Below are positions 1,611 through 32,000 of a DNA stretch of 32,000 nt, piece after piece; the stretch's first letter is position 1, and every line of letters begins with the position of its first letter. The stretch spans positions 864-32,863 of the forward strand of contig NZ_FUWK01000033.1 in assembly GCF_900167395.1 (NCBI RefSeq). The letters run 5' to 3'. The translations under genes and the position numbers were made by a program. This DNA comes from Nitrosomonas europaea. GTDB taxonomy: Bacteria > Pseudomonadota > Gammaproteobacteria > Burkholderiales > Nitrosomonadaceae. The notes below the pieces were generated by a model. The model ran no database searches. It was not told where the DNA came from and saw nothing but the letters and a program-made list of their open reading frames with translations.

Positions 1611-3398
1611 TTATCCATGCGCTCTCATCTTTTCTCCGGTTTGTACTTGCCACAGGTTGGTGTACAGACCGTTACGCGCCAGGAGGGCCTCGTGTGTACC
1701 GGTTTCCACTACTTCACCCTTGTCCAGTACATAAATGCAATGGGCATTACGGATGGTGGAAAGACGGTGTGCGATCACAATGGTGGTGCGGCCAACAGTA
1801 ATCCGTTCCAGAGAACGCTGGATGGCTGCTTCTGTTTCATTATCCACTGCTGAAGTAGCTTCATCGAGTACCAGCACCGGCGGATTCTTGAGAACAGCAC
1901 GGGCAATCGAGATGCGCTGTCGCTGGCCGCCGGAGAGTTTCTGCCCGCGTTCGCCTACGATGGTCTGATAATCATCCGGCAGTTCCATGATGAAATCATG
2001 TGCCTCAGCTGTTCTGGCTGCGGCGATGACATCTTCCATATGGGCGCCGGACGAACCATACGCGATATTTTCATACACCGTGCCATGGAACAGATAAACG
2101 TCCTGGCTGACCAGACCGATCGATTTGCGCAGATCATGCAGGCGCAAATCACGGATATCGTGACCATCCAGCAGAATACGTCCTTGTTGCGGCTCGTAGA
2201 AACGGAGCAGCAGTTTGACTATCGTACTCTTGCCGCTGCCGGTAGCCCCGACCAGTGCAATTGTCTGGCCGGCATGAACAGTCAGGGAAAGATGGTTCAG
2301 TGTCGATGCGCGCCGCTCATAGTTGAAGCTGATATCGTCAAAAATGATTTCGCCGCTGACCTGTGCCGCGGGTAGTGTTTGCGGCCCGTCTGTAATGGTC
2401 GGTTGAGCCTGTAATAAATCCAGCACGCGGTGTGTGGAGGCCATCGCGCGCTGGTACAGATCGAGTGTTTCCCCCAGGCGAGTGAGCGGCCACAGCAGGC
2501 GCTGGGTCATGAATACCAGAATGCTGTACGCGCCGACATTCAGTTCGCCGCCAGCAGCCATTAGCCCCGCTGCAATCATGATGGCACTGAAACCGAGTGC
2601 GATCACCATACGGATGATCGGTACAAAGGCAGCACTGAGGGCAATCGCGTGCTGATTCTTTTCCTGATAGATCTGGCTTTCGCGCTCAATCTGGCGTAAT
2701 TCATACGGTTCAGTCGTATAACTTTTGATGGTGGCAATGCCGCCAAGATTATTGGACAGATAGCTGTTCAGAATGCTGACCTGTTCGCGGACGGCCATAT
2801 AGCGCGGAGCAATGCGTTTCTGAAACAGGTAGGAACCGGCCACGACGAATGGCATGGGCAATAACGCCATCCATGCCACGCCAGGTGTCAGGTAGATGAA
2901 CATGCCACCCACTGTGATGACGGTGGTCAGAAGCTGAATGAGGTCATTTGCTCCGACATCCAGAAACCGCTCCAGCTGATTGATGTCATCGTTCAGGATC
3001 GCCATCATCCCGCCGGTGCTGCGTGCCTCGAAGTAGGCCAGCTCCAGTTTCTGAACATGATCATAGGCATCCAGGCGCAACGTATGCTGAATACTCTGCG
3101 CCAGGTTGCGCCAGCAGAGCTTGAGCAGATATTCCCAGATGGATTCGAATCCCCAGACGATGAGGGTGATCGTAGCCAGTATCCAGAGCTGGGTCGAGAC
3201 CTCCGGAAATCCCAGCCGGGCAAATACCGAAGATTGCTGATTGACGACGATGTCTACTGCCATCCCTATCAATACCGGCGGCGCCAGATCGAACAGCTTA
3301 TTGAGAATCGAAAATAATGTAGCCAGCCAGATACGGCCGCGAAAAGCATGGCCGTAGCGCAGCAGGCGAATCAGCGGAGCGGATGAATGATTGGACAT
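1611..3398 (-). CDS. ABC exporter with fused permease and ATPase (MsbA/MdlB-like type I exporter).
   Basis: Six-TM-type N-terminal domain. Walker A GATGSGKST, signature LSGGQRQR, Walker B VLVLDEATSAVD. Start trimmed to MSNHSSAPLIRLL (ATG 3398). The 54-codon upstream extension in the track has no family-like sequence. Confidence 0.9.
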   Translation of the reverse strand: MSNHSSAPLIRLLRYGHAFRGRIWLATLFSILNKLFDLAPPVLIGMAVDIVVNQQSSVFARLGFPEVSTQLWILATITLIVWGFESIWEYLLKLCWRNLAQSIQHTLRLDAYDHVQKLELAYFEARSTGGMMAILNDDINQLERFLDVGANDLIQLLTTVITVGGMFIYLTPGVAWMALLPMPFVVAGSYLFQKRIAPRYMAVREQVSILNSYLSNNLGGIATIKSYTTEPYELRQIERESQIYQEKNQHAIALSAAFVPIIRMVIALGFSAIMIAAGLMAAGGELNVGAYSILVFMTQRLLWPLTRLGETLDLYQRAMASTHRVLDLLQAQPTITDGPQTLPAAQVSGEIIFDDISFNYERRASTLNHLSLTVHAGQTIALVGATGSGKSTIVKLLLRFYEPQQGRILLDGHDIRDLRLHDLRKSIGLVSQDVYLFHGTVYENIAYGSSGAHMEDVIAAARTAEAHDFIMELPDDYQTIVGERGQKLSGGQRQRISIARAVLKNPPVLVLDEATSAVDNETEAAIQRSLERITVGRTTIVIAHRLSTIRNAHCIYVLDKGEVVETGTHEALLARNGLYTNLWQVQTGEKMRAHG

Positions 3399-3580
3399 AA
3401 GAACGGTGGTTGGTTTGAATTGGGATTGAGCAAATCCGAAAGATCGGAAGCGGTATGGAACAGCCTTATCTGTTTTACCGGCAGCATCCGGCACATTGGA
3501 AAAAGCGGGCAACTGCCGTATAGTGCGCCCACACCCGCCGAAAACACCGGGATCAGCCATTTTCAGTCAGGGCCACGAAT

Positions 3581-4459
3581 ATGCCAGCTGCAGCAGGAGT
3601 ATCCAAAGGGACATTATATGTGGTTGGTACCCCCATCGGGAATTTGCGCGACATTACCCTGCGCGCATTGGAAATATTGTCTGCGGTCGACTGTATTGCG
3701 GCTGAACACATTCAGCATGCGCAAAAGCTGCTGGCAGGGCATGCTTTGCATACCACGTCTACCCGTATCATGCCATTACATCAGCATAACGAAGGCAGCG
3801 CGGTGGAGAAAATCATCGAACTGCTGGGGAGCGGCAAATCGGTCGCCCTGATCTCCGATGCGGGCACTCCGGCGATTTCCGATCCAGGCGCCTTGCTGGT
3901 GCAGCAGGTACTGGCGCGAAGCCTCCCGGTCGTGCCCATTCCTGGCGCCAATGCGGCGTTGTGTGCTTTATCCGCATCCGGTCTGATTGCACCGCATTTT
4001 TTCTTTTATGGATTTTTACCGGCAAAAAGCGGGGAGCGTCAGCGCAAGCTGGCCGGTTTGAAAACGCTATACGCCTGTATCCTGGTTTTTTATGAAGCAC
4101 CGCACCGTGTACTCGAATGTGTTGCGGATATGGTTGCCGTATTGGGTACCACCCGTGAAATCACGTTTGCCCGTGAACTGACCAAGCTATTCGAGACGAT
4201 TCATACCTGTGCGCTGGGAGAAGCGCTGGACTGGCTGCAGGCCGATGAAAACCGGCTGAGAGGCGAGTTCGTTCTGTTGCTGGCGCCGGCAGAAGAACCT
4301 GGGCAGGAGGACATCAGCCCGCAAGCTGTACATGCGCTTGCCATCCTGCAAAGAGAACTGCCTTTGAAACAGGCGGTGCAACTGGCTGCAGAAATTACCG
4401 GTGAAGGCAGAAAAAAGCTCTATGCCCGGGCGCTGCTGGAACGAAAAACGGAAACATAG
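3581..4459 (+). CDS. rsmI: 16S rRNA (cytidine1402-2'-O)-methyltransferase RsmI.
   Basis: GTLYVVGTPIGNLRDITLRALEIL and ISDAGTPAISDPG are tetrapyrrole-methylase-fold RsmI hallmarks. 292 aa. Confidence 0.93.
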   Translation: MPAAAGVSKGTLYVVGTPIGNLRDITLRALEILSAVDCIAAEHIQHAQKLLAGHALHTTSTRIMPLHQHNEGSAVEKIIELLGSGKSVALISDAGTPAISDPGALLVQQVLARSLPVVPIPGANAALCALSASGLIAPHFFFYGFLPAKSGERQRKLAGLKTLYACILVFYEAPHRVLECVADMVAVLGTTREITFARELTKLFETIHTCALGEALDWLQADENRLRGEFVLLLAPAEEPGQEDISPQAVHALAILQRELPLKQAVQLAAEITGEGRKKLYARALLERKTET

Positions 4460-5812: not shown

Positions 5813-8800
5813 ATGAAATTTTCCACAATCCTTACCTTCCTGAGTGGTACCACCTTCGTATATCCTGCCGCATTTGCGCAAAGTATCATCGCCAGCGGTA
5901 ATATTCTTCCCGGTATCCCGGCGCCGCCTCTTGCGCTATGGCAACCTGCCAATTTACGTGTGGGCGTGAATGCAGCGGGCACGCTTTCCATTACCGATGG
6001 TGGTATGGTTGCCGGTCCGGGTCAGGCGCTCCTCGGCTCTGCCGTTGGTAGTTCTGGCACGGTGATGGTCAGTGGTAATGATTCCCTGTTCTCCACCGTA
6101 TTGCAAATGCACGTGGGTAGTAGTGGCACGGGCACTCTCAAGATTGAGGACAGGGGCACCGCCAATATCGGTACATTCCTTTATATCGGCCGTTTCATTG
6201 GTTCCGATGGCCTCGTGACTGTGAGCGGCGCGGGATCGAGGCTGACCAACGGCAACATGATGCAGGTCGGTAGCGAAGGCACCGGCGCTTTGATCATCGA
6301 AGATGGTGCAACGGTGAACAGCACGAACGTGACCCGGATCGGCTGGAGCTCGACAGGTATAGGTACGGCTATCGTTCAGGGTTCCGGTTCAAGCTGGACA
6401 ACGAACAACTCGATGTCCGTGGGTTTCGGCGGCTCTGGCAGATTGCTGATCGTAGATGGTGGCGCTGTAAGCAATGTCGAAGGCTTTGTCGGCCGCGAGA
6501 CCGGATCGACCGGCGAGGTGACGGTCTCAGGCGCGGGTTCTTCCTGGTCGAACAGCGCGGCCCTTGAGATCGGCAGTTTCGGCATGGGCGAGTTGATGGT
6601 CGAAGACGGTGGTGCACTCAGCAACACGGATGGCCGGATCGGGCGGGAGGCCGGCGCTATCGGTACCGTGACGATCAAGGATGCGGGTTCCACCTGGAGC
6701 AACACGGGTACGCTCTACATCGGCGATCTCGGCAAAGGTACGCTGACTGTTGCCGATGGCGGCAAGGCGAATATCGTGGCCAGCTTCGTGATTGGCCGCC
6801 AGGCGGGCGCCGAAGGTCTCGTGACCTTAAGCGGCGCGGGATCGAGCCTCATCAACACCAGTTCCACGCAGGTCGGCGGCGCGGGCAAGGGTACGCTGAT
6901 CGTCGAGAATGGCGGCGTGGGCCAATCGAACAACCTCTCGGTCGGGGTCTCGTCAGGCAGCACCGGATCGGTCGCGGTTCGCGGCGCCGATTCACGCTGG
7001 ATCGCAGGCAGCATCCTGACCATCGGCGCAAGCGGCCATGGCACGCTGACGATCGAAGACGGCGGCTCGGTCACCAGCACTCTGACCACTATCGGGTCCA
7101 ACACTTCGGGTCTCGGCGAAGCGACCGTCTCAGGCGCGGACTCCACCTGGACCAACAGCGGCGCCCTCATTGTAGGAGCACTGGGCAACGGCACGCTCAC
7201 CGTCTCAGACGGCGGCATGGTTTCGAATGCAACCGCAGGTATTGGCGTCGGTACAGGCCGCCAGGGCGTGGCCCTGGTTTCCGGCGCTGGCGCACGCTGG
7301 ATCAACAGCGGTGATTTAACCGTCGGTACCAACGGCAGCGCCACCCTGACCGTCGCAGACGGTGGCCATGTTAGTGTCGGCGGCGGCAACGGCATTGTTC
7401 ATGTCGCTGAAGCCGCGACAGCAAATGGCGTGGTGAATATCGGGGCTGCGGCGGGTAGTGCGCCGGTCGGGGCCGGCACGCTGGGCGCCGCCGAAGTTCG
7501 TTTTGGCGACGGCACCGGCAGGCTTAATTTCAATCATACCGATAGCGCCTATCTCTTCTCACCCGTCATCACCGGAAACGGGGCGCTCAATCACTATTCC
7601 GGCACGACCATCCTGACCGGCGACAACACCTATAGCGGTTCTACGATGATTGCGGGCGGTGTGCTCCAGCTCGGCAATGGCGGCACGAGCGGCTCGGTCA
7701 CCAGCGACATCCAGATCGACAGCACAGGAACACTGCGCATTGATCGTTCAAATGACTGGACCTATGCAGGTATCCTTTCCGGGACTGGCGTCTTCGATCA
7801 ATTGGGCACCGGTACGACGATGCTCACCGGCAACAGCGCTGCTTTTAACGGTACGACGACGGTTACGAATGGCCGTCTGATCGTTGGCATGGGCGGCGCC
7901 GGGACGCTCGGCGGTATGGTCAATGTGCTGGATGGCGCAACACTTGGCGGTTCGGGCACGGTCGGTAGCGCCGGGGCCGACGTCACCATCCTTGGCGGCG
8001 GTGTGCACGCGCCGGGTAACAGCGTTGGCGTTCAGACCATTGCCGGCAACTACGTCAATTACGGCACACTGCGAATCGACGGTACACCGGCGGGGACGGA
8101 CATGCTCATTGTGCAGGGTGGCGTCGATATTACCGGTGCCACCCTCGATCTCCAGCTTTCTCCTCCCGTGGCGTCGGGCTGGAATATCATCAACGGGCCG
8201 TTCACTATCATCGACAAGCAGAGTGCCGGCGCAGTGGCTGGCAGCTTCGGCGCGGTCAACAACAATCTGTTGTTCCTCGATCCATACGTGAATTATGCTG
8301 GTGGCGATGGCAACGATATCACGCTCGATTTCGTGCGCAATGACGTTGCCTTTGCATCGGTCGCGCTCACTCCGAACCAGATCGCGACGGGCAGGGGAAT
8401 TGGTACGCTGCCTTATGGCCACCCGATATGGAACACGATTGCGCTCATGAGCGATGAGGTCGCCGTGCGCCGGAGCTTCGACTTTCTTTCGGGAGAAATC
8501 CATGCCACTGCATCCAGCGTGCTGCTCGAAGAAAGCCGTTTTCCGCGCAGAGCAGTCAATGACCGGCTTCGATCCGCGTTTGACACAAATACCGACACTG
8601 CATTCTGGGCACATGGCTATGGGGCCTGGGCCGGTTGGCAGAGTGATGGCAACGCTGCCTCCCTCAAACGCGATACTGGCGGGTTGCTCCTGGGCCTCGA
8701 TGGTCAGCTTGGCAACTGGCGGACAGGCGTCATGACCGGCCGTAGCTGGACTGGTGTGACGGTTGCTGACCGGGCCTCGACCGCCGAGGCCGGAACGTGG

Positions 8801-9412
8801 TATGCCGGTCTCTATGGAGGCACCCAATGGGGCGATCTGGGCTTGCGTCTTGGTTTGTTGCATGGCGAGCATGACATCGACACCCGGCGCACGGTTGCCG
8901 TCCCCGGTCTTTCCGGAACTTTGCGCAGTACTCATGGTGCGAGTACGACCCAGGCTTTCGGAGAGCTGGCTCACACCCTCCATTTTGGCATTGTGCGCTA
9001 TGAGCCATTTGCTAACCTCGCCCATATTCACACACGTTCGAACAGGTTTACCGAAACCGGGGGCAGTATGGCTCTGGCCGGCCGACGCAGCACGATGTCT
9101 GCGACTGTCATGACGCTGGGCCAACGCATCGAAGCTGCACATGTTTTCCGCGGGACAGGCATCAGAACCGTTGGCATGATCGGTTGGCAGCATGTTTGGG
9201 GTGATGTGATTCCGCGTTCGACCCATCGCTTTTCCATGGGTGATCCCTTTACCATCGCCGGTACGCCACTCGCACGCAACAATCTGCTGGTCGAGGGCGG
9301 GTTCGAATTGTCACTGGGCAGGCGTGCGGCGATTGGTGCCAGCTATACCGGCCGCTTCGCACATAACGGGCATGATCATGCCGCTACTGCAGTGCTGCGC
9401 ATCGGTTTCTGA
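5813..9412 (+). CDS. Type Va autotransporter: Sec signal, repeat-rich beta-helical passenger, PATR-type repeats, C-terminal beta-barrel.
   Basis: Signal peptide MKFSTILTFLSGTTFVYPAAFAQ. About 10 modules of GTLT(I/V)xDGGxV...VSGAGSxW. GNGALNHYSGTTILTGDNTYSGSTMIAGGVLQLGNGGTSG is a PATR-like repeat. The last ~300 aa show alternating beta-strand patterns and end ...AVLRIGF (terminal aromatic). Confidence 0.9.
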   Translation: MKFSTILTFLSGTTFVYPAAFAQSIIASGNILPGIPAPPLALWQPANLRVGVNAAGTLSITDGGMVAGPGQALLGSAVGSSGTVMVSGNDSLFSTVLQMHVGSSGTGTLKIEDRGTANIGTFLYIGRFIGSDGLVTVSGAGSRLTNGNMMQVGSEGTGALIIEDGATVNSTNVTRIGWSSTGIGTAIVQGSGSSWTTNNSMSVGFGGSGRLLIVDGGAVSNVEGFVGRETGSTGEVTVSGAGSSWSNSAALEIGSFGMGELMVEDGGALSNTDGRIGREAGAIGTVTIKDAGSTWSNTGTLYIGDLGKGTLTVADGGKANIVASFVIGRQAGAEGLVTLSGAGSSLINTSSTQVGGAGKGTLIVENGGVGQSNNLSVGVSSGSTGSVAVRGADSRWIAGSILTIGASGHGTLTIEDGGSVTSTLTTIGSNTSGLGEATVSGADSTWTNSGALIVGALGNGTLTVSDGGMVSNATAGIGVGTGRQGVALVSGAGARWINSGDLTVGTNGSATLTVADGGHVSVGGGNGIVHVAEAATANGVVNIGAAAGSAPVGAGTLGAAEVRFGDGTGRLNFNHTDSAYLFSPVITGNGALNHYSGTTILTGDNTYSGSTMIAGGVLQLGNGGTSGSVTSDIQIDSTGTLRIDRSNDWTYAGILSGTGVFDQLGTGTTMLTGNSAAFNGTTTVTNGRLIVGMGGAGTLGGMVNVLDGATLGGSGTVGSAGADVTILGGGVHAPGNSVGVQTIAGNYVNYGTLRIDGTPAGTDMLIVQGGVDITGATLDLQLSPPVASGWNIINGPFTIIDKQSAGAVAGSFGAVNNNLLFLDPYVNYAGGDGNDITLDFVRNDVAFASVALTPNQIATGRGIGTLPYGHPIWNTIALMSDEVAVRRSFDFLSGEIHATASSVLLEESRFPRRAVNDRLRSAFDTNTDTAFWAHGYGAWAGWQSDGNAASLKRDTGGLLLGLDGQLGNWRTGVMTGRSWTGVTVADRASTAEAGTWYAGLYGGTQWGDLGLRLGLLHGEHDIDTRRTVAVPGLSGTLRSTHGASTTQAFGELAHTLHFGIVRYEPFANLAHIHTRSNRFTETGGSMALAGRRSTMSATVMTLGQRIEAAHVFRGTGIRTVGMIGWQHVWGDVIPRSTHRFSMGDPFTIAGTPLARNNLLVEGGFELSLGRRAAIGASYTGRFAHNGHDHAATAVLRIGF
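5975..7400 (+). repeat. In-frame degenerate tandem repeat, period about 150 nt (about 50 aa), 9-10 copies, inside the autotransporter passenger.
   Basis: V(T/A)VSGAGS(S/R)W-type anchors recur 9 times and GTLT(V/I)xDGG anchors 10 times. I counted 50 and 51 aa between consecutive anchors. Confidence 0.8.
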
Positions 9413-24027: not shown

Positions 24028-24354
24028 GTGAAAAAGGCAGCAGCCATTAAACTACTTATCGCTTCTGGCATGATTCTGTCGTTTTCCGGCATGGCAAGTG
24101 CAGCCGGGAATACTGATTCGGTCCAGAGCAAAATTGTCATGTGCCAAGGCTGTCATGGTATAGAGGGATATCGTACTGCGTACCCACATGTTTATCATGT
24201 GCCAAAACTGGGTGGACAGCATTCAGCTTACCTGGTCAAAGCACTGAAAGATTACAGATCCGGAGAGCGTAACCATCCAACCATGGTTGGTATTGCAGGG
24301 ACACTTTCCGATGAGGATATCGATGCGTTGGCTGCTTATTACGCCGGTAATTGA
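24028..24354 (+). CDS. Monohaem class I cytochrome c (cytochrome c4 half-like).
   Basis: GTG start with SD GAGGAGG. Signal peptide ...GMASAAG. CQGCH haem site. LGGQHSAYLVKALKDYRSGER...M axial-Met region. Confidence 0.85.
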   Translation: MKKAAAIKLLIASGMILSFSGMASAAGNTDSVQSKIVMCQGCHGIEGYRTAYPHVYHVPKLGGQHSAYLVKALKDYRSGERNHPTMVGIAGTLSDEDIDALAAYYAGN

Positions 24355-24387: not shown

Positions 24388-24714
24388 ATGAAAAGCTATT
24401 TGGTGGCCGCAGTCAGCGGGTTGATATTTTTTTTATCGGGACAGGTAAGCGCAGCAGATATTGAAGCCGGGAAAAAGAAAGCAGAGGAGATATGCTCATC
24501 CTGTCACGGTCTGGATGGCAACAGTCCGGTGCCAATGTTTCCGAAAATTGGCGGCCAGCCCAGAACCTACATCGAGAAAGTATTGAAAGATTACAAATCA
24601 GGGGTACGTAAGGATCCGGTCATGGCTGGTATGGCAGCTGCCTTGAGTGCGGAAGATATCGACAATCTGGCGTTTTACTATTCCAGCCAGTCAGGATTAC
24701 AAGTCAAGCGGTAA
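24388..24714 (+). CDS. Monohaem class I cytochrome c (cytochrome c4 half-like), paralog of the preceding gene.
   Basis: Signal peptide ...SGQVSAAD. CSSCH. IGGQPRTYIEKVLKDYKSGVRKDPVM. Same 108-aa length as the preceding gene. Confidence 0.85.
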   Translation: MKSYLVAAVSGLIFFLSGQVSAADIEAGKKKAEEICSSCHGLDGNSPVPMFPKIGGQPRTYIEKVLKDYKSGVRKDPVMAGMAAALSAEDIDNLAFYYSSQSGLQVKR

Positions 24715-25222: not shown

Positions 25223-25464
25223 TACCGCAGATTTTGTAAAGGGTGATACCAGAAGATGACAGGATAATTCTGCTGTCATCATACACCGAAGAAAACATGA
25301 TTTCCGGTAAAGGTGGAACTGCGCAATTTCAACCTGATTCATGACGGGTGCATGAATATCCCTGCCCTGATTTGATCGGGTAGGTTTGAAGTGCTTACCT
25401 TTCCTGATCGATGGAGTACACTAGACTGGCAACACTCGTGTTTTCTGTCAACGGATGTTTTTTA

Positions 25465-26286
25465 ATGATGAGTCGGGTATCACAAGCGCTTGCGCCCGTT
25501 TTATTTTTACCGCACGGTGGCGGGCCGTTACCTGTTCTGGGTGACAAAGAGCATGAGAAGATGGTCTCCTTTCTGAGAGAAATCGCGACCGAGCTGGGTG
25601 AACCGCCAGCAATTCTGATTATCAGTGCCCACTGGGAAGAGGAACAGGCGACGATAACGAGCAATAGTCAACCTGGAATAATTTATGATTATTATGGATT
25701 TCCTGCTGCGGCTTACGAAATTCAATATGCAGCGCCTGGTCATCCCGGGCTGGCGAATGAAATTTATACCCTGTTGACAGCAAACGGTATTCCGGCGAGA
25801 CTCGATGAACAACGCGGTTTCGATCACGGGATGTTTGTACCGCTCAAGCTGATGTTTCCACAAGCCCGGATTCCTTGTGTCCAGTTGTCGTTGTTGAATA
25901 ACCTGAATCCTCGAATGCATATTGCGCTTGGCAAAGCCATTACCGCTTTGCGAAGCAGAAATATTCTGATCGTCGGTTCAGGCATGTCATTTCACAATTT
26001 GAAAGCATTTTTCTCGAGCACGGTTGATGGCCGCGGAGAAAATGAGGCATTTGACAACTGGCTGATTGAAACATGCACCCATCCGGCAATTGCGCCCGAA
26101 ATGCGTGAACAGCGGTTGATCGAGTGGGAAAAGGCGCCTTTTGCCCGATTCTGTCATCCAAGAGAAGAACACTTGTTGCCATTGCATGTCTGCTATGGTG
26201 TCGCTTGTGTCGATACCCCGACAGCACGGACTGTATTCAACGGAGAAATCATGGGCAGGAAAGTAACGAGCTTTCTCTGGCAGTAG
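25465..26286 (+). CDS. Class III (LigB-superfamily) extradiol dioxygenase, DODA/YgiD type.
   Basis: PVLFLPHGGGP, ISAHWE, DYYGFP, YAAPG, GFDHGMFVPL, PCVQLSL and GSGMSFHNL are collinear with E. coli YgiD. Start trimmed to MMSRV (25465). Confidence 0.85.
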   Translation: MMSRVSQALAPVLFLPHGGGPLPVLGDKEHEKMVSFLREIATELGEPPAILIISAHWEEEQATITSNSQPGIIYDYYGFPAAAYEIQYAAPGHPGLANEIYTLLTANGIPARLDEQRGFDHGMFVPLKLMFPQARIPCVQLSLLNNLNPRMHIALGKAITALRSRNILIVGSGMSFHNLKAFFSSTVDGRGENEAFDNWLIETCTHPAIAPEMREQRLIEWEKAPFARFCHPREEHLLPLHVCYGVACVDTPTARTVFNGEIMGRKVTSFLWQ

Positions 26287-26365: not shown

Positions 26366-26692
26366 ATGAAAAAACTGAAATTAAAAGCCGCGGTATCTGG
26401 TTTCCTGTTTACTGCCATATTAATGAACAGTGCATGGTCGGCACAAGAAGAGAAGCCCGGTACCGGTTTCGCGTGGAAGGATGGTGCAGAAATTTACGCC
26501 AAAATCTGTGCTTATTGTCATGAGGCCAATGTCGGGCCGCAAATTCGTAACCGTGAACTTCCTGCAATCTATATCCGTGCGATCGTTCGTAATGGAAGCC
26601 GGGCCATGCCCGCTTTTCGCTCTTCTGAAATCGACGATGAATCACTGGCAAAAGTGGCAGATTTCATTTCTCAGAAAGCATCTCAGTATTGA
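26366..26692 (+). CDS. pchC: Cytochrome c subunit of p-cresol methylhydroxylase (PchC-like).
   Basis: Sec signal. CAYCHE haem site. IVRNGSRAMPAF...DDESLAKVADF closely parallels P. putida PchC (IVRNGFRAMPAF...DDESL) as I recall it. Confidence 0.8.
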   Translation: MKKLKLKAAVSGFLFTAILMNSAWSAQEEKPGTGFAWKDGAEIYAKICAYCHEANVGPQIRNRELPAIYIRAIVRNGSRAMPAFRSSEIDDESLAKVADFISQKASQY

Positions 26693-26707
26693 AGGAGGTC
26701 CTGCTCC

Positions 26708-27655
26708 ATGGATGAAACCCGACGTGACTTCATCAAAGGTATGTTTGCCAGTGGAACTTTCCTGGCTCTTGGTGTGCCCGGAATTGCTCGAGCGGCATCG
26801 GTTGGGCCGCTTTTCGACAGCACACGAAATTGCCGGCTATTATTGGGAAATACCACCGGTGCCGAATCATTTGCAAAAGGTGTGCAGTCTGCCTGTTTCA
26901 ACCATGGCAGCCGCCATCATGGTGCGTTACCGGTATTCCGGTTCGAAAGTGAGTTATCAACCGGTTTTTTGCATTTGGTCGATTTGTTGATGCAATCGCG
27001 GAATACGCGCTGGATTGCTGTCATGGATCATGCCGATGCAGCCATATTTACTGAGCTGATACGAAATTCCGCCGCTCATCTGCTGGCATCAGGCTCACAT
27101 ACTTTTGCAGCCGGTGATCATGCGGCTCTGCCGTTGCGTCATGTATGGGCTGCGGCATCACCAGCCTACAGTACAGGAGGGTTACTGGCATCGATGCTGG
27201 CTCGCGAGCAGTACAGTTTCTCGATTGTCGAACGTTTTCTCACGCAATCAGCGGGGGAAAGTATAGAAAATGCTGCACTATCTCTCCCGGAATTTTTGCC
27301 GTATCACCGGGCTGATCAGCCTGTAACCCGTTTGTATTGTGCTGGTGTACCGCTTCCGGAAGCCGGCCGGCTGCTCGGCTGGGAAACATCAAAAAATCAG
27401 GAATCCTTATTTTCCCGGACCATTGCCTCTACTGCCAGCCGGAATGAAACAGCAGGTAGTACGACAGTTGAATATCCGCAATCCGGTGACTGGGTTGAAG
27501 CTACCGGTTATGCAGTTGCAGCAGCTGCACTGGGGATGAAAATAAACCGGGAATCATGTTCTGAGCGCGCATTCGTATATCGGTCAGGCCAGGGTCATCC
27601 GGATCATAAAGGGTTGTCGGGAGTAAATTTCGCCTCATTTGTAATCGACGTGTAG
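26708..27655 (+). CDS. Tat-signal protein of unknown function in the pchX position.
   Basis: MDETRRDFIKGMFASGTFLALGVPGIARA has a twin-arginine motif, h-region and AxA site. No recognisable cofactor motif. 13-16 nt gaps to both neighbours imply co-transcription. Confidence 0.7.
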   Translation: MDETRRDFIKGMFASGTFLALGVPGIARAASVGPLFDSTRNCRLLLGNTTGAESFAKGVQSACFNHGSRHHGALPVFRFESELSTGFLHLVDLLMQSRNTRWIAVMDHADAAIFTELIRNSAAHLLASGSHTFAAGDHAALPLRHVWAAASPAYSTGGLLASMLAREQYSFSIVERFLTQSAGESIENAALSLPEFLPYHRADQPVTRLYCAGVPLPEAGRLLGWETSKNQESLFSRTIASTASRNETAGSTTVEYPQSGDWVEATGYAVAAAALGMKINRESCSERAFVYRSGQGHPDHKGLSGVNFASFVIDV

Positions 27656-27667
27656 GGAGAATACAGT

Positions 27668-29212
27668 ATGGCCAGTAAATATATTGCATTGCCGAAAGGA
27701 GTATCAGAAAAAGATTTCGAGGCGGCTGTCGGTCATTTTCGCGGAATATTGGGCGATGACGCCGTACTCACCAGTGCGGAACAGCTTATACCCTATACCA
27801 AGACCATGATGCCGGTTCCTGATGCCGAGCATACGCCCTCCATCGCATTGCTGGCGACAACGGTTGAACAGATCCAGAAAATCGTTGCGGTTTGTAATCA
27901 GTACAAGATACCGGTCTGGACGATTTCCACCGGCAAAAATTTAGGTTATGGTTCGGCAGCTCCGGCGGAGCGCGGTCAGATAGTGCTCGATCTCAAACGT
28001 ATGAATCGTATCCTCGAAGTGGATAAGGATCTGGCCTTTGCCCTGGTTGAGCCCGGGGTGACGTACCAGCAGCTCTACGATTACATCAAAGAACATAAAC
28101 TGGGTCTGTGGTTATCCATGCCTGCGCCTTCAGCCATTGCCGGGCCGGTTGGTAATACGCTGGATCGTGGTGTCGGGTATACACCCTATGGAGAACATTT
28201 TCTGTTCGCTTGCGGTATGGAAGTGGTGCTTGCCAATGGTGAAGTGCTGCGCACGGGGATGGGATCGATGCCTAACTCTAATACCTGGCAGGTATTCAAA
28301 TGGGGGTATGGCCCCTATCTGGATGGTATTTTTACGCAGTCCAACTATGGCATCGTTACCAAATTCGGATTCTGGCTGATGCCTGAACCCCCGGCGTTCA
28401 AGCCATTCGTGATTCAATACGAACATGAAGAAGACATCGTGGAAATCGTGGAAACGATCCGCCCGCTGCGTATCAGTGGAGTCATTCCAAATGCAGTCGT
28501 TATTGCACATGCGCTGTATGAAGCACCTGTGAAAGCGCGGCGGGGTGATTATGTGAGCGGACCGGGTTCGATTCCGGATGAGGCCGTTTACCGGATTATG
28601 AAAGATCATAAACTCGGGATCTGGAATGTGTATGCGGCGCTCTATGGCACGCAGGAACAGATTGATGTGAACTGGAAGATCGTGACACAGGCATTTGGTC
28701 AGTCGGGCAAGGCCAAAATCCTGACAGAGCAGGAAGCGGCAAATGATCCTGCATTTGCTTATCGCACCAAGCTCATGCGTGGAGAAATGACATTGACAGA
28801 ATTTTCGCTGTATAACTGGCGTGGAGGTGGCGGGTCGATGTGGTTCGCACCTGTTTCCCAGGCGCGAGGAAGCGAAACACTCAAGCAGATGGCGCTGACC
28901 AAGCAGATTCTTGCCAAGTACGGGCTGGATTATTCCGGTGAATTTATCGTCGGGATGCGTGATATGCACCATATCGTCGATGTCTTGTACGACAAGACCG
29001 ATGCAGAGCAAACGAAAGCAGCCTATCAGTGTTTTGACGAGTTACTGACCGAATTTTCTGCACGAGGGTATGGAATTTATCGTGTCAATACGGCGTTCAT
29101 GGATAAGGTGGCTGAAACCTATGGCCCGGTACAGAGAAATATTCACAGAACACTTAAAAAGGCGCTGGATCCTAACGGGATCCTGGCACCGGGAAAATCA
29201 GGCATTCGTTGA
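27668..29212 (+). CDS. pchF: p-Cresol methylhydroxylase flavoprotein subunit (PchF-like; VAO/PCMH FAD-binding family).
   Basis: Collinear with P. putida PchF over its whole length as I recall it: LPKGV..., KIPVWTISTGKNLGYGSAAP, PSAIAGPVGNTLDRGVGYTPYGEHF, LYNWRGGGGSMWFAPVS (with the Tyr for 8-alpha-O-tyrosyl-FAD), ILAPGKSGI. No signal peptide. Confidence 0.93.
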   Translation: MASKYIALPKGVSEKDFEAAVGHFRGILGDDAVLTSAEQLIPYTKTMMPVPDAEHTPSIALLATTVEQIQKIVAVCNQYKIPVWTISTGKNLGYGSAAPAERGQIVLDLKRMNRILEVDKDLAFALVEPGVTYQQLYDYIKEHKLGLWLSMPAPSAIAGPVGNTLDRGVGYTPYGEHFLFACGMEVVLANGEVLRTGMGSMPNSNTWQVFKWGYGPYLDGIFTQSNYGIVTKFGFWLMPEPPAFKPFVIQYEHEEDIVEIVETIRPLRISGVIPNAVVIAHALYEAPVKARRGDYVSGPGSIPDEAVYRIMKDHKLGIWNVYAALYGTQEQIDVNWKIVTQAFGQSGKAKILTEQEAANDPAFAYRTKLMRGEMTLTEFSLYNWRGGGGSMWFAPVSQARGSETLKQMALTKQILAKYGLDYSGEFIVGMRDMHHIVDVLYDKTDAEQTKAAYQCFDELLTEFSARGYGIYRVNTAFMDKVAETYGPVQRNIHRTLKKALDPNGILAPGKSGIR

Positions 29213-29263
29213 CTGTATTTGTTCTTTGTACAAGAAATGACCATCTCAAAGCGAGGAGTACAG

Positions 29264-30379
29264 ATGAGACGAATCAGGGCTGCAGTGGTTTACCAGAAAG
29301 GCGGGCCTTTTCAGATCGAAGATCTGAGGCTGGAAGCGCCGCGTACCGATGAGGTGCTGGTACGCATCGTAGCGACCGGGATGTGTCATACCGACATGGT
29401 GGCTCGTGACCAGCTTTATGATGTACCGCTACCGGTAGTCCTCGGGCATGAAGGTTCAGGTATCGTTGAACAGATCGGTGATGGTGTAAGAAAAGTGGCA
29501 GTTGGTAACCATGTTGTACTTACCTATATGTGGTGCGGTCATTGCAAACCCTGCCTGCGTGGCGATCTGACCTACTGCGAGCATTTTTATGCGCTGAATT
29601 TCGGGGGAGTACGTGAAGACGGCAGTACTTCGACCTGTCTGGCAAACGACACCCGGAGACCGATTCACGATCATTTTTTTGGACAATCATCATTTGGCAC
29701 ATTTGCTCTGGTGCATGAACGCAATGTGATCAAAGTACCCGAAACTGCACCACTGGAACTACTTGGGCCATTGGGTTGCGGCATTCAGACGGGTGCCGGG
29801 GCGGTCATTAATACACTTAAAGTCAGCCCGGGCAGCAGTTTTGTAGCATTCGGCGGGGGTGCGGTAGGATTGAGTGCGGTGATGGCGGCACATGCTGCCG
29901 GTGCTACGACAATCATTTCTGTCGATGTAGTTCCTTCACGCTTGGCGCTGGCAATGGAACTTGGCGCGACCCATACCATCAACAGTCGTGAAACGGATCC
30001 TGTTGAAGCGGTTCACAAGATTATTAATGGAGGGGCTGATTTCACTTTGGAATCGAGTGGACGCCCGGCCGTATTGCGCCAGGCCATCGATGCACTGGCG
30101 ATCCGGGGGACATGCGGTATCGTCGGCGCGCCTGCACTGGGTACTGAGGCGAGTTTCGATGTTAACGGCGTAATGACGACAGGCAAGCGCATCATCGGGA
30201 TCGTCGAAGGGGACAGTAAGCCGGACCTTTTCATCCCGGCACTGGTCGAGCTCTACCAGCAAGGGAAATTTCCTTTCGACAGGCTGGTGAAGTTTTATTC
30301 CCTCGATCAGATCAATCAGGCTGCCGAGGATAGTGAAAAGGGCATCACGATCAAGCCGATCATCCGGTTGCAGTCATAG
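29264..30379 (+). CDS. Zn-dependent aryl-alcohol (benzyl-alcohol, XylB-like) dehydrogenase.
   Basis: GMCHTDM, VLGHEGSGIV, structural-Zn Cys cluster CGHCKPCLRGDLTYC, and Rossmann motif GGGAVGLS. SD GAGGAG lies before ATG 29264. Confidence 0.9.
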   Translation: MRRIRAAVVYQKGGPFQIEDLRLEAPRTDEVLVRIVATGMCHTDMVARDQLYDVPLPVVLGHEGSGIVEQIGDGVRKVAVGNHVVLTYMWCGHCKPCLRGDLTYCEHFYALNFGGVREDGSTSTCLANDTRRPIHDHFFGQSSFGTFALVHERNVIKVPETAPLELLGPLGCGIQTGAGAVINTLKVSPGSSFVAFGGGAVGLSAVMAAHAAGATTIISVDVVPSRLALAMELGATHTINSRETDPVEAVHKIINGGADFTLESSGRPAVLRQAIDALAIRGTCGIVGAPALGTEASFDVNGVMTTGKRIIGIVEGDSKPDLFIPALVELYQQGKFPFDRLVKFYSLDQINQAAEDSEKGITIKPIIRLQS

Positions 30380-31460
30380 ATTTTATACTTCACCTCCTGC
30401 CTCGTAAATCTGCACGAAATCTGGAAATCGACGCCTTTGCGGCGTGTTTCTCCCAGGTTCTGCGTTGCATTGGCGCTCGGCAGGTTGGCGACCTCGGCAG
30501 TGGCATCCTGCTGCCAGAGCGCGATTCGGGCTTCTGTCCGCTTAGTCAGACGGAACTTGGTGCCCAGTTCGATGCCGGTATTGATTGACGGCTTGATTTC
30601 AGCAGTACCAGTAGTCAGGTAGGCCGGTGAGCGGGATCCGGTGACGATCTGGAAGGTACGTCCCCAGTTGCCATAGACGCTGAAGGCTGCCGACGGACTA
30701 TATACGATGCTCAGCTTGGGCTGGTTGATCCAGTCGTAATCTTGCAAGGGATAGGTCTGTCCGGTCGCGTTGAGCGTGGTGTGTCCCTTGAACGTGTCAG
30801 TTCGGATCGCTGGTACGATCTTCCAGGATCTACCCGGTTTGATGACTGCCTGAACGTAGGCGCCGAAGTTGTCGAGGGTATAGCTGTCGTCGTTGGCTGT
30901 CGAGGCAGGTGTGGAGAAATTTATCGGCTCGGCATAGGCGTAACGATAGCGACGATAGCGGTTGTTCTGGTGTTCGTAGTTGAAGCCGCCCTCGATGGCG
31001 ATTTGCTCGTTAGCCTGCCAAGTCAGTGTGTTGATCCAGCCCAGGTGTTTCTCGTTCCATAGGCGGCGTTGGCGTGGCAGGGTACTGCCTGAGTAGCTGC
31101 TGTAGGTGACATGACGATCATCATTGATGCTGTTGTAATACAGTTGGCTACTGTAGGCCAGGTTCTGGCTGAGTTGATAATCCAGATGGCCGCTCAACTG
31201 CTGCATGTCGCGGCTGTCGTGGTCGTTGGCATTGCGGGGGGCGGACTGCCAGCAGTCAGCGGCGAGTTCGCTGGCAGTCATGTAGCCAGGGGATTTCGCC
31301 TCATGGCTGTAAATGCGAGCAATCAGGCCGGCCTTCAGGCCGCCGGCATCCGAGGTGTAGAACCATTTGCCGCCGATGTTGTGCAGACCGTAACGTGGAT
31401 CGTTGGTGCCACGGACGACTTCGATATACTCGATATCTGTCATTTTCAGAAGACGACTGC
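30380..31460 (-). pseudogene. TonB-dependent receptor remnant, truncated at both ends.
   Basis: Starts at the tail of the plug (DIEYIEVVRGTNDPRYG). The barrel strands run to ...NLGETRRKGVDFQIS. The frame then runs antisense into the ADH gene instead of ending in a terminal aromatic. No signal peptide, TonB box or plug. Confidence 0.75.
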
Positions 31461-31464
31461 ACTA

Positions 31465-32000
31465 AATGTCAGAAGTCGGTAACACATATGATATTTACCG
31501 ATGTATCTTGGTATAGCGCATGCTCCCATGCCTGTTCTGGCAGAATGGCCACGCCATGCTCGGTAATCGGTGCGGTATCGATCGCCATGTTTACCTCGCT
31601 TTGGTGCAGTCGCCTTCTGAAAATAACACCCATCCCGCTCTGACCTTCCTTTTCAGGTATTAGAAAGGCTATGTATTCGTTAACAGTTGAAACTGATTTT
31701 CCCGGCCGAGAGCGGCTTGCAGTGGGACAATAGGTGAACTGAGATTTTCCTGTTGATCGAGCCACCTGAACCATCCGAGGTAATTTTCCAGATACCGGGT
31801 AGCAACGCCATGGAATCGTTTCATCCATTGTTTGAGCCGGCTGTGGTAAGCGTTAACGTTCTGAATATGATAGACACCAGCGATGACTCGAACCCCGGCA
31901 GCAAGATTGACGGGACGATGGGTGATTCCAAGACTGCGGGCCACGGATCGATAAACAGCCGCACCATCGCTGCAGAAAATGACATCTTTTTCCAGAACAG
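31465..32000 (-). mobile_element. IS1595-family insertion sequence, 3' part. The inner end is approximate and the element continues past the window edge.
   Basis: Contains the transposase C-terminus. TonB-receptor homology stops near 31460. I could not identify the terminal IR. Confidence 0.5.
31669..32000 (-). CDS. IS1595-family (ISXO2-like DDE) transposase, C-terminal ~110 aa. The 5' part lies outside the window.
   Basis: Translation continues upstream of the track ORF to the window edge: ...VIFCSDGAAVYRSVARSLGITHRPVNLAAG..HIQNVNAYHSRLKQWMKRFHGVATRYLENYLGWFRWLD. This is the characteristic N-x-x-E/H...K...GV..KYL..YL.EF/WFR tail. Confidence 0.85.
   Translation of the reverse strand, partial: VLEKDVIFCSDGAAVYRSVARSLGITHRPVNLAAGVRVIAGVYHIQNVNAYHSRLKQWMKRFHGVATRYLENYLGWFRWLDQQENLSSPIVPLQAALGRENQFQLLTNT

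Follow-up and report, generated by a model that had tools for sequence, protein, structure and literature searches.

A PchX-family protein of Nitrosomonas europaea as the probable carrier of a twin-arginine signal for the signal-less flavoprotein PchF

How does a flavoprotein that has no signal peptide reach the periplasm? The question is raised by a four-gene cassette within a stretch of 32,000 nucleotides of Nitrosomonas europaea DNA (RefSeq assembly GCF_900167395.1, contig NZ_FUWK01000033.1, positions 864 to 32,863 of the forward strand), here called the window, in whose numbering all positions are given. The cassette encodes a c-type cytochrome related to PchC, a protein of the PchX family that we call X, a flavoprotein related to PchF of p-cresol methylhydroxylase (PCMH) and an alcohol dehydrogenase. 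PCMH is periplasmic according to Hopper 1985, as cited in a passage of 10.1101/2025.09.08.674859. In that paper PchF, BpfA and PcmI are given as lacking signals, and the signal of the cytochrome is supposed to guide the complex. Yet the Sec signal of the cytochrome could not guide a folded flavoprotein. For PchF of the window an extracytoplasmic site is implied by the adjoining gene for a cytochrome with a Sec-type signal. The features on which the argument depends are as follows (Tat, twin-arginine translocation).

26366 to 26692, + strand: PchC-like c-type cytochrome, 108 amino acids, PF13442 (E 1.6e-19), with a CAYCH haem site
26708 to 27655, + strand: X gene (PchX family), ATG start, 315 amino acids, TAG stop; proposed Tat-signal-bearing escort of PchF
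26708 to 26794, + strand: predicted Tat signal peptide, amino acids 1-29, with n-region MDETRRDFIK, h-region GMFASGTFLALGV and c-region PGIARA containing an A-x-A site
26720 to 26725, + strand: twin-arginine codons CGA CGT (R5 and R6), invariant in the 66-sequence wide-family alignment
26795 to 27652, + strand: mature alpha/beta domain of X, amino acids 30-315, from the AF2 model
27668 to 29212, + strand: PchF-like flavoprotein, 514 amino acids, signal-less, the proposed cargo; PF01565, PF02913

Comparative sequence analysis leads us to think it likely that X is a dedicated carrier of the PchX family, supplying a twin-arginine (RR) signal in trans for PchF. A first-pass annotation had described a 315-residue open reading frame (ORF) with a twin-arginine signal between the cytochrome and flavoprotein genes, and had suggested that its product escorts folded PchF through Tat. 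The reading frame, the motif and its conservation bear out the description, and the suggestion gains support from the comparative tests and the complementary pattern in 87 loci presented below.

X begins with MDETRRDFIKGMFASGTFLALGVPGIARA, starting MDETRRDFIKG. Residues 4-10, T-R-R-D-F-I-K, match the consensus (S/T)-R-R-x-F-L-K of the n-region, and the uncharged h-region is followed by P24, GI and then A-R-A at residues 27-29. P24 and A29 are each at least 90% conserved in the alignment of nitrifier sequences. Among the N-terminally complete members of the X family RR is found at the aligned position in 246 of 247, the sole exception being a 143-amino-acid fragment that carries QR. Homologues lacking a Tat signal would have weakened the first-pass proposal, which had asked whether the motif is universal; the family carries it almost without exception. 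Throughout the family the pair is followed by x-[LFV]-[ILM]-K, the lysine being present in 210 of 246, and in the 66-sequence alignment of the wide family, in which the mean column identity is 23%, all columns but those of R5 and R6 vary. Because RR is so consistently kept and no other column is invariant, the Tat signal of X is far beyond chance. A few short relatives have precomputed PF10518 assignments and several homologues are named as Tat-signal proteins by NCBI. In the AF2 model the signal region is of low confidence, with DSSP helix at residues 3-20.

The two flanking proteins differ from X in this respect. PchF matches the P. putida PCMH flavoprotein (1dii_A) over residues 7-513 (E 8e-233), and an alignment that starts at residue 7 leaves no space for a signal peptide, in agreement with what had been read from the sequence at first. 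The context of the FAD-linking tyrosine (FAD, flavin adenine dinucleotide) is retained as EFSLYNWRGGGG (LYNWRGGGG), and the pchF gene of the window is 100% identical to that of metagenome contig WBZY01000054.1. The cytochrome N-terminus, MKKLKLKAAVSGFLFTAILMNSAWSA, is lysine-rich and hydrophobic without RR and is thus Sec-like, as had also been noted; its gene lies directly 5′ of X, a position kept in related loci.

How general is the association of the signal-bearing protein with the signal-less one? We gathered 87 loci through PchF alone, thereby avoiding the bias of a search with X; they comprise 7 plasmid records and 80 metagenome contigs. To class them we used a hidden Markov model (HMM) of the X family, examined how PchF begins in each and read the neighbouring ORFs.

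56 of 87 loci: signal-less PchF with an X-family HMM hit immediately next to it
13 of 87 loci: divergent small RR-signal protein beside PchF or the cytochrome-PchF pair
10 of 87 loci: X absent, PchF with its own Tat signal
5 of 87 loci: neither an X-type partner nor a PchF signal
3 of 87 loci: too close to the contig end for classing
0 of 87 loci: X together with a PchF signal

An X-type RR protein thus adjoins a signal-less PchF in 69 of the 87 loci (56 + 13), and a Tat signal is present either in trans or in cis in 79 of the 84 assessable ones. In the window the signal-bearing partner and the signal-less cargo are encoded side by side, as expected of a hitchhiker pair, and those relatives of the cargo that have no partner carry a signal themselves, the two never occurring together (10 versus 69 of 87). 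This alternation of cis and trans is the result to which we give the greatest weight, and it supports the carrier role; it is predicted by co-export, and not by a mere periplasmic accessory role.

The 13 divergent partners were assigned by manual reading and hhalign, which replaced an automatic detector of RR-signal ORFs after the latter gave 39 of 160 false positives on an opposite-strand control. They fall into two groups, both of which align with the core of X (residues ~74-135), outside the signal (hhalign probability 92-93%, E ~5e-7). The smallest are RR-signal proteins of 124-132 amino acids encoded 5′ of the cytochrome and PchF genes, so that the order becomes RR protein, cytochrome, flavoprotein. 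They share with X only the central core (hhalign probability 92.7%), and may mark the smallest unit able to do the job. The flavoproteins with a signal in cis form a clade ~50% identical to PchF of the window, and most still adjoin a Sec-type cytochrome c. In Novosphingobium sp. ES2-1 the Tat-signal N-terminus of PchF reads MSDLNLDRRGLLGAG..., MSDLNLDRRGLLGAGIIGAASLGLG, with the signal sequence MSDLNLDRRGLLGAGIIGAASLGLGTGASA; in another member of the clade (L146) the N-terminus is MSLDMNRRTMLGTAVVGAAAALVA. The loci of both kinds are these.

Minimal RR proteins: L073 at 3216-3587 (N. aromaticivorans pNL2); L131, L100, L103, L104, L108 and L117
PchF with its own signal, X absent: L081 (Novosphingobium sp. 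ES2-1 plasmid p1, 2884-4512); L143-L147, L149, L157, L158 and L164

A second set, of 72 genome loci (L001-L072) from Nitrosomonas, Nitrosospira, Nitrosovibrio, Nitrotoga and Nitrospira, was collected with X itself. The order cytochrome-X-PchF, mostly followed by the alcohol dehydrogenase, is kept nearly everywhere. In two Nitrospira-like contigs from bins of uncultured nitrite oxidisers (L045 and L051) it is cytochrome-PchF-X-alcohol dehydrogenase, so X need not precede PchF. All PchF orthologues begin M[AT]SKYIALPKGVSE, and there is nothing in frame 5′ of them from which a signal could come. In every genome locus with a full X-PchF pair X adjoins a signal-less pchF, and the same arrangement is found in distant members: gammaproteobacterial contigs, Pseudomonas CP116775.1, Colwellia, Massilia, a Sulfuricurvum plasmid and a pchACXF-type contig. 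The co-occurrence with signal-less pchF that the first-pass annotation had wanted checked is therefore seen both in the nitrifiers and well beyond them.

Within the same loci X is 32-75% identical to its counterpart in the window and PchF 73-95%. Because it evolves so much faster than PchF, X is better read as an adaptor than as a catalytic subunit, to judge from these sequences. The cassette is common to ammonia oxidisers (Nitrosomonas, Nitrosospira, Nitrosovibrio) and nitrite oxidisers (Nitrotoga, and Nitrospira of a different phylum), and across the nitrifiers PchF keeps its 73-95% identity, with X and the cytochrome down to 32-50%. A strongly conserved periplasmic phenol-oxidising cassette is thereby flagged in both groups. 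Why chemolithoautotrophs should have it is a matter for guesswork; our guess is the detoxification of phenolic nitrification inhibitors. A literature search found no paper pairing Nitrosomonas with a p-cresol-methylhydroxylase-type enzyme.

Is X related to the pchX of Pseudomonas? In the pchACXF operon of P. putida (pRA4000/pRA500) pchX likewise lies between the cytochrome and flavoprotein genes. The pchX of pRA4000 is absent from the collections searched, and a Pseudomonas chromosome of the same layout was compared instead. In this (CP116775.1) an XylR-type regulator, an aldehyde dehydrogenase, a 111-amino-acid cytochrome c, a 228-amino-acid ORF and a 522-amino-acid PchF follow one another, and the 228-residue protein starts MNLERRSLLKG and ends HFVSFSIQA. 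An HMM built from nitrifier sequences only gives it a score of 51.8 bits, of which 28.0 remain when the first 35 residues are left off, so the similarity goes beyond the signal. A member of classic layout (P0195/P0291) was matched with E 7.6e-12 in a search of the whole library. On this sequence evidence the window ORF is a true, enlarged homologue of the ORF at the pchX position in Pseudomonas. Compared with the latter, nitrifier X is longer (315 versus 228 amino acids), with an extended and variable C-terminal half. The cassettes differ also in their setting, that of the nitrifiers occurring in chemolithoautotrophs with an alcohol dehydrogenase as neighbour, whereas the Pseudomonas type has an aldehyde dehydrogenase. 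The closest relatives of X are Nitrosomonas proteins, with 98% identity to one from a Nitrosomonas sp. metagenome-assembled genome, and there are 136 close homologues. A tblastn search of PLSDB with the X protein gave no match.

The family is small: among 1.84 billion representative proteins its profile found only 222 at E <= 0.001, and members have lengths from ~130 to 360 amino acids. When the wide alignment was used in a word-index search, nearly all the proteins retrieved were from nitrifiers; the contexts of distant members were obtained by cluster and contig look-ups. The N-terminus takes the form M-x3-RR-x-L-[ILM]-K-G and the C-terminal strand ends ...VSFV[IM][DE][VIL]. X of the window ends ...FASFVIDV, and this C-terminal motif is present in 214 of 283 family members. 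The conserved core of X (~74-135) reads RWIAVMDxADAAIFTELxRN...GSH, and apart from R5 and R6 only F55, R119 and H131 reach 90% conservation in the wide family. An AF2 model made with 51 homologues (mean pLDDT 75.5, pTM 0.79) has a mixed alpha/beta body. A Foldseek search of the PDB with this model returned nothing at E <= 0.001 (best E 0.06; best template-modelling (TM) score 0.21); by sequence X gave no match in Pfam or NCBIfam at E <= 0.1, and none in the PDB beyond a chance hit at E 0.13. No conserved pattern of Cys or His runs through the 66-sequence alignment. Taking Pfam, NCBIfam, PDB, Foldseek and the alignment together, we find no recognisable cofactor motif in X, and so its need of Tat is not explained by its having a cofactor. 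Nor do the alignments and the model show a second hydrophobic segment.

If X is the carrier, a series of events can be proposed. PchF would fold in the cytoplasm and take up FAD, and PchX would bind it through the conserved alpha/beta core. The signal peptide of PchX, with its TRRDFIK motif, h-region and A-R-A site, would then direct the complex to the Tat translocase, and after transport signal peptidase would cleave PchX after Ala29. In the periplasm PchX would be exchanged for the Sec-exported, haem-loaded cytochrome PchC, the mature flavocytochrome would assemble and covalent flavinylation would be completed. In P. putida the covalent tyrosyl-FAD bond reportedly forms only when the cytochrome PchC binds, in which case the cargo would be PchF with non-covalent FAD. 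The first-pass annotation had envisaged a cargo that was both folded and already flavinylated; the second of these would be at odds with that work on P. putida. The crystallised P. putida enzyme (1DII, 1DIQ) is reported to comprise PchF and PchC only, so X must leave.

The closest parallel known to us is found in Streptomyces, where the tyrosinase MelC2, which has no signal of its own, is taken through Tat by MelC1, a protein that does not remain in the finished enzyme (PMC2758597). As proposed for PchX and PchF, the two genes are adjacent, the signal is on the small helper only and the cargo is a cofactor-containing enzyme without a signal; by analogy PchX may be released after export, as MelC1 is. 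The likeness is one of arrangement, for Pfam and Foldseek reveal no sequence or detectable fold relationship between the helpers, and MelC2 is a copper enzyme whereas PchF is a flavoprotein, with nothing to indicate that PchX loads a cofactor in the manner of MelC1.

In hydrogenase-2 (HybO/HybC) and dimethyl sulfoxide reductase (DmsA/DmsB) of E. coli, a subunit that is folded and already contains its cofactor, and that has no signal, crosses the membrane with a twin-arginine partner. These partners are redox subunits that stay in the enzyme, in contrast to PchX with its lack of a cofactor motif and its reported absence from 1DII. The PchF-like protein of Novosphingobium sp. ES2-1 and FccB of flavocytochrome c sulfide dehydrogenase share the design of a Sec-exported cytochrome and a Tat-exported flavoprotein; in the Novosphingobium type the flavoprotein itself bears the signal, in cis, and X is missing, whereas in the window the signal is provided in trans. 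The Tat proofreading chaperones TorD, DmsD and NapD resemble PchX in being small, in being encoded within an operon and in serving solely the export of a single redox enzyme. Unlike PchX they are signal-less and cytoplasmic and bind the signal of their substrate. The idea that X is a cytoplasmic chaperone of the TorD kind was considered and rejected; X bears the signal itself, and no match to the TorD/DmsD or NapD families was found in Pfam or NCBIfam.

How well does the carrier role withstand scrutiny? A number of points weigh against it. The curated Tat-signal HMMs (Pfam PF10518, TIGR01409) give no hit to X of the window at E <= 0.1, so that the Tat call depends on the motif and its conservation. 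The 72 loci seeded with X are not an independent sample, and among those seeded with PchF the 13 divergent partners depend on manual reading. Five of the latter set (L123, L150, L153, L156 and L160) have a signal-less PchF and an adjacent cytochrome gene (downstream in four), with no RR partner within ~3.5 kb; in these, PchF must leave by another route or have a partner encoded farther away. That X binds PchF is inferred, as are co-transport, cleavage of the signal and release or hand-over to PchC. Lastly, nitrifier X has ~286 mature residues compared with ~95 in the smallest partners, and its extra C-terminal part may have another role. Indeed this large and fast-evolving part suggests functions beyond signal delivery, as would be expected if PchX were exported independently as a periplasmic accessory, aiding PchF-PchC assembly, flavinylation or docking to an electron acceptor, with PchF leaving by some other route. 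The Tat signal and the synteny would fit any periplasmic partner. But such a role leaves the export of PchF unexplained, PchF being signal-less in all these loci, nor would it lead one to expect a Tat signal on PchF itself in just those loci that lack X. PchF and PchC are moreover said to assemble and flavinylate in vitro without PchX. On balance an accessory of this kind seems unlikely.

PchX might instead stay permanently with the enzyme as a third subunit, whether in soluble form or anchored because its signal is not cleaved; the nitrifier enzyme would then be a complex of three components. Such a role would be compatible with co-export. The operon coupling looks stoichiometric, with spacers of 12-15 nt on either side of X, X and PchF strictly co-occur, and the hitchhiking partners of hydrogenase and dimethyl sulfoxide reductase are indeed permanent subunits. 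Set against this are the reported composition of the mature P. putida enzyme as flavoprotein and cytochrome only, and the presence of an A-x-A site, with A29 and P24 conserved, from which cleavage is predicted rather than anchoring. Nor does a protein that lacks a cofactor motif and a second hydrophobic segment, and that drifts to 32% identity where PchF remains at 73-95%, look like such a subunit, and we hold this explanation to be quite improbable. We give very little credence to a further idea, that PchX is a Tat-exported ligand-binding or sensor protein for phenolic substrates only loosely tied to PchF. It arises from the best Foldseek matches, which include SiaP, OpuBC and the ribose-binding protein (E 0.07-0.8, TM ~0.17-0.22). 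None of these solute-binding matches is significant, the members of 124-132 amino acids are too small for a binding-protein fold yet retain the signal and the core, and the distribution of the signal in cis and in trans would be left without explanation.

A carrier role for X, if correct, would explain how a signal-less flavoprotein reaches the periplasm and would give the conserved pchX gene a function. X would be the second clear case, after MelC1, of a protein that mainly lends its Tat signal, and the first for a flavoprotein. The carrier role would also yield a rule for expression of PCMH-type enzymes and the related 4-alkylphenol and bisphenol hydroxylases: co-express X, or graft on a Tat signal. 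Recent papers name PchX a hypothetical protein or omit it, and a literature search found none linking PchX to Tat, although older papers were not covered and an earlier statement is possible. A bolder proposal can be put forward, which as a whole is doubtful. In this, PchX would represent a previously undescribed fold family of carriers providing a Tat signal in trans for covalent flavoproteins; it would occupy the PchC docking surface of PchF, keeping the FAD non-covalent and the enzyme silent in the cytoplasm, and hand PchF to the cytochrome in the periplasm for flavinylation; and the nitrifier cassette of cytochrome, X, PchF and alcohol dehydrogenase would serve in the periplasm to defend the cell from nitrification inhibitors of the phenolic kind.

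The remaining features of the cassette and its immediate surroundings are the following.

25411 to 26286, + strand: LigB-type extradiol dioxygenase, PF02900 (E 1e-31); NF007914 (E 1.6e-41), under the curated cut-off
26691 to 26698, + strand: Shine-Dalgarno-like GAAGGAGG, 9 nt 5′ of the X ATG, read directly from the sequence
27656 to 27667, + strand: spacer GGAGAATACAGT, 12 nt, with the ribosome-binding site for pchF, read from the sequence
29219 to 30379, + strand: Zn-dependent alcohol dehydrogenase, fourth cassette gene in nitrifiers; PF00107, PF08240

The Shine-Dalgarno-like GAAGGAGG overlaps the stop codon of the upstream cytochrome gene, which suggests tight operon coupling of that gene with X. 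X and PchF share one reading frame in the window, separated by the TAG and 12 nt (27653-27670), and read-through of the X stop codon would yield an X-PchF fusion. An in-frame extension 5′ of PchF, GEYS or GEHS, recurs in many Nitrosomonas loci and is absent in Nitrosospira and Nitrospira; this recurrence probably reflects conserved spacing of the ribosome-binding site. A scan for promoters and terminators gave nothing exceeding the expectation from shuffled sequence.

The alcohol dehydrogenase gene, whose true start is probably an internal ATG, follows that of PchF in the majority of the 72 genome loci. On the other side, the LigB-type dioxygenase is closest to 4,5-DOPA dioxygenase (NF007914), and its gene is found 5′ of the cassette in most Nitrosomonas loci and not in Nitrosospira or Nitrospira. 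About 1.7 kb 5′ of the cassette there are two tandem genes for c-type cytochromes of 108 amino acids with signal peptides (24028-24354 and 24388-24714), found also in Nitrosomonas sp. HPC101. These cytochromes might be electron acceptors for the flavocytochrome. Downstream on the - strand, the ORF of a TonB-dependent receptor (30316-31443) comprises the beta-barrel part only, the plug domain being absent, and adjoins a fragment of an IS1595/ISXO2-type transposase (31669-31944, - strand); the receptor gene looks as if it has been broken by the insertion element. Elsewhere in the window, and unrelated to the cassette, are genes for a RiboL-PSP HEPN-domain protein (278-817, - strand) and an autotransporter of 1199 amino acids (5813-9412, + strand).

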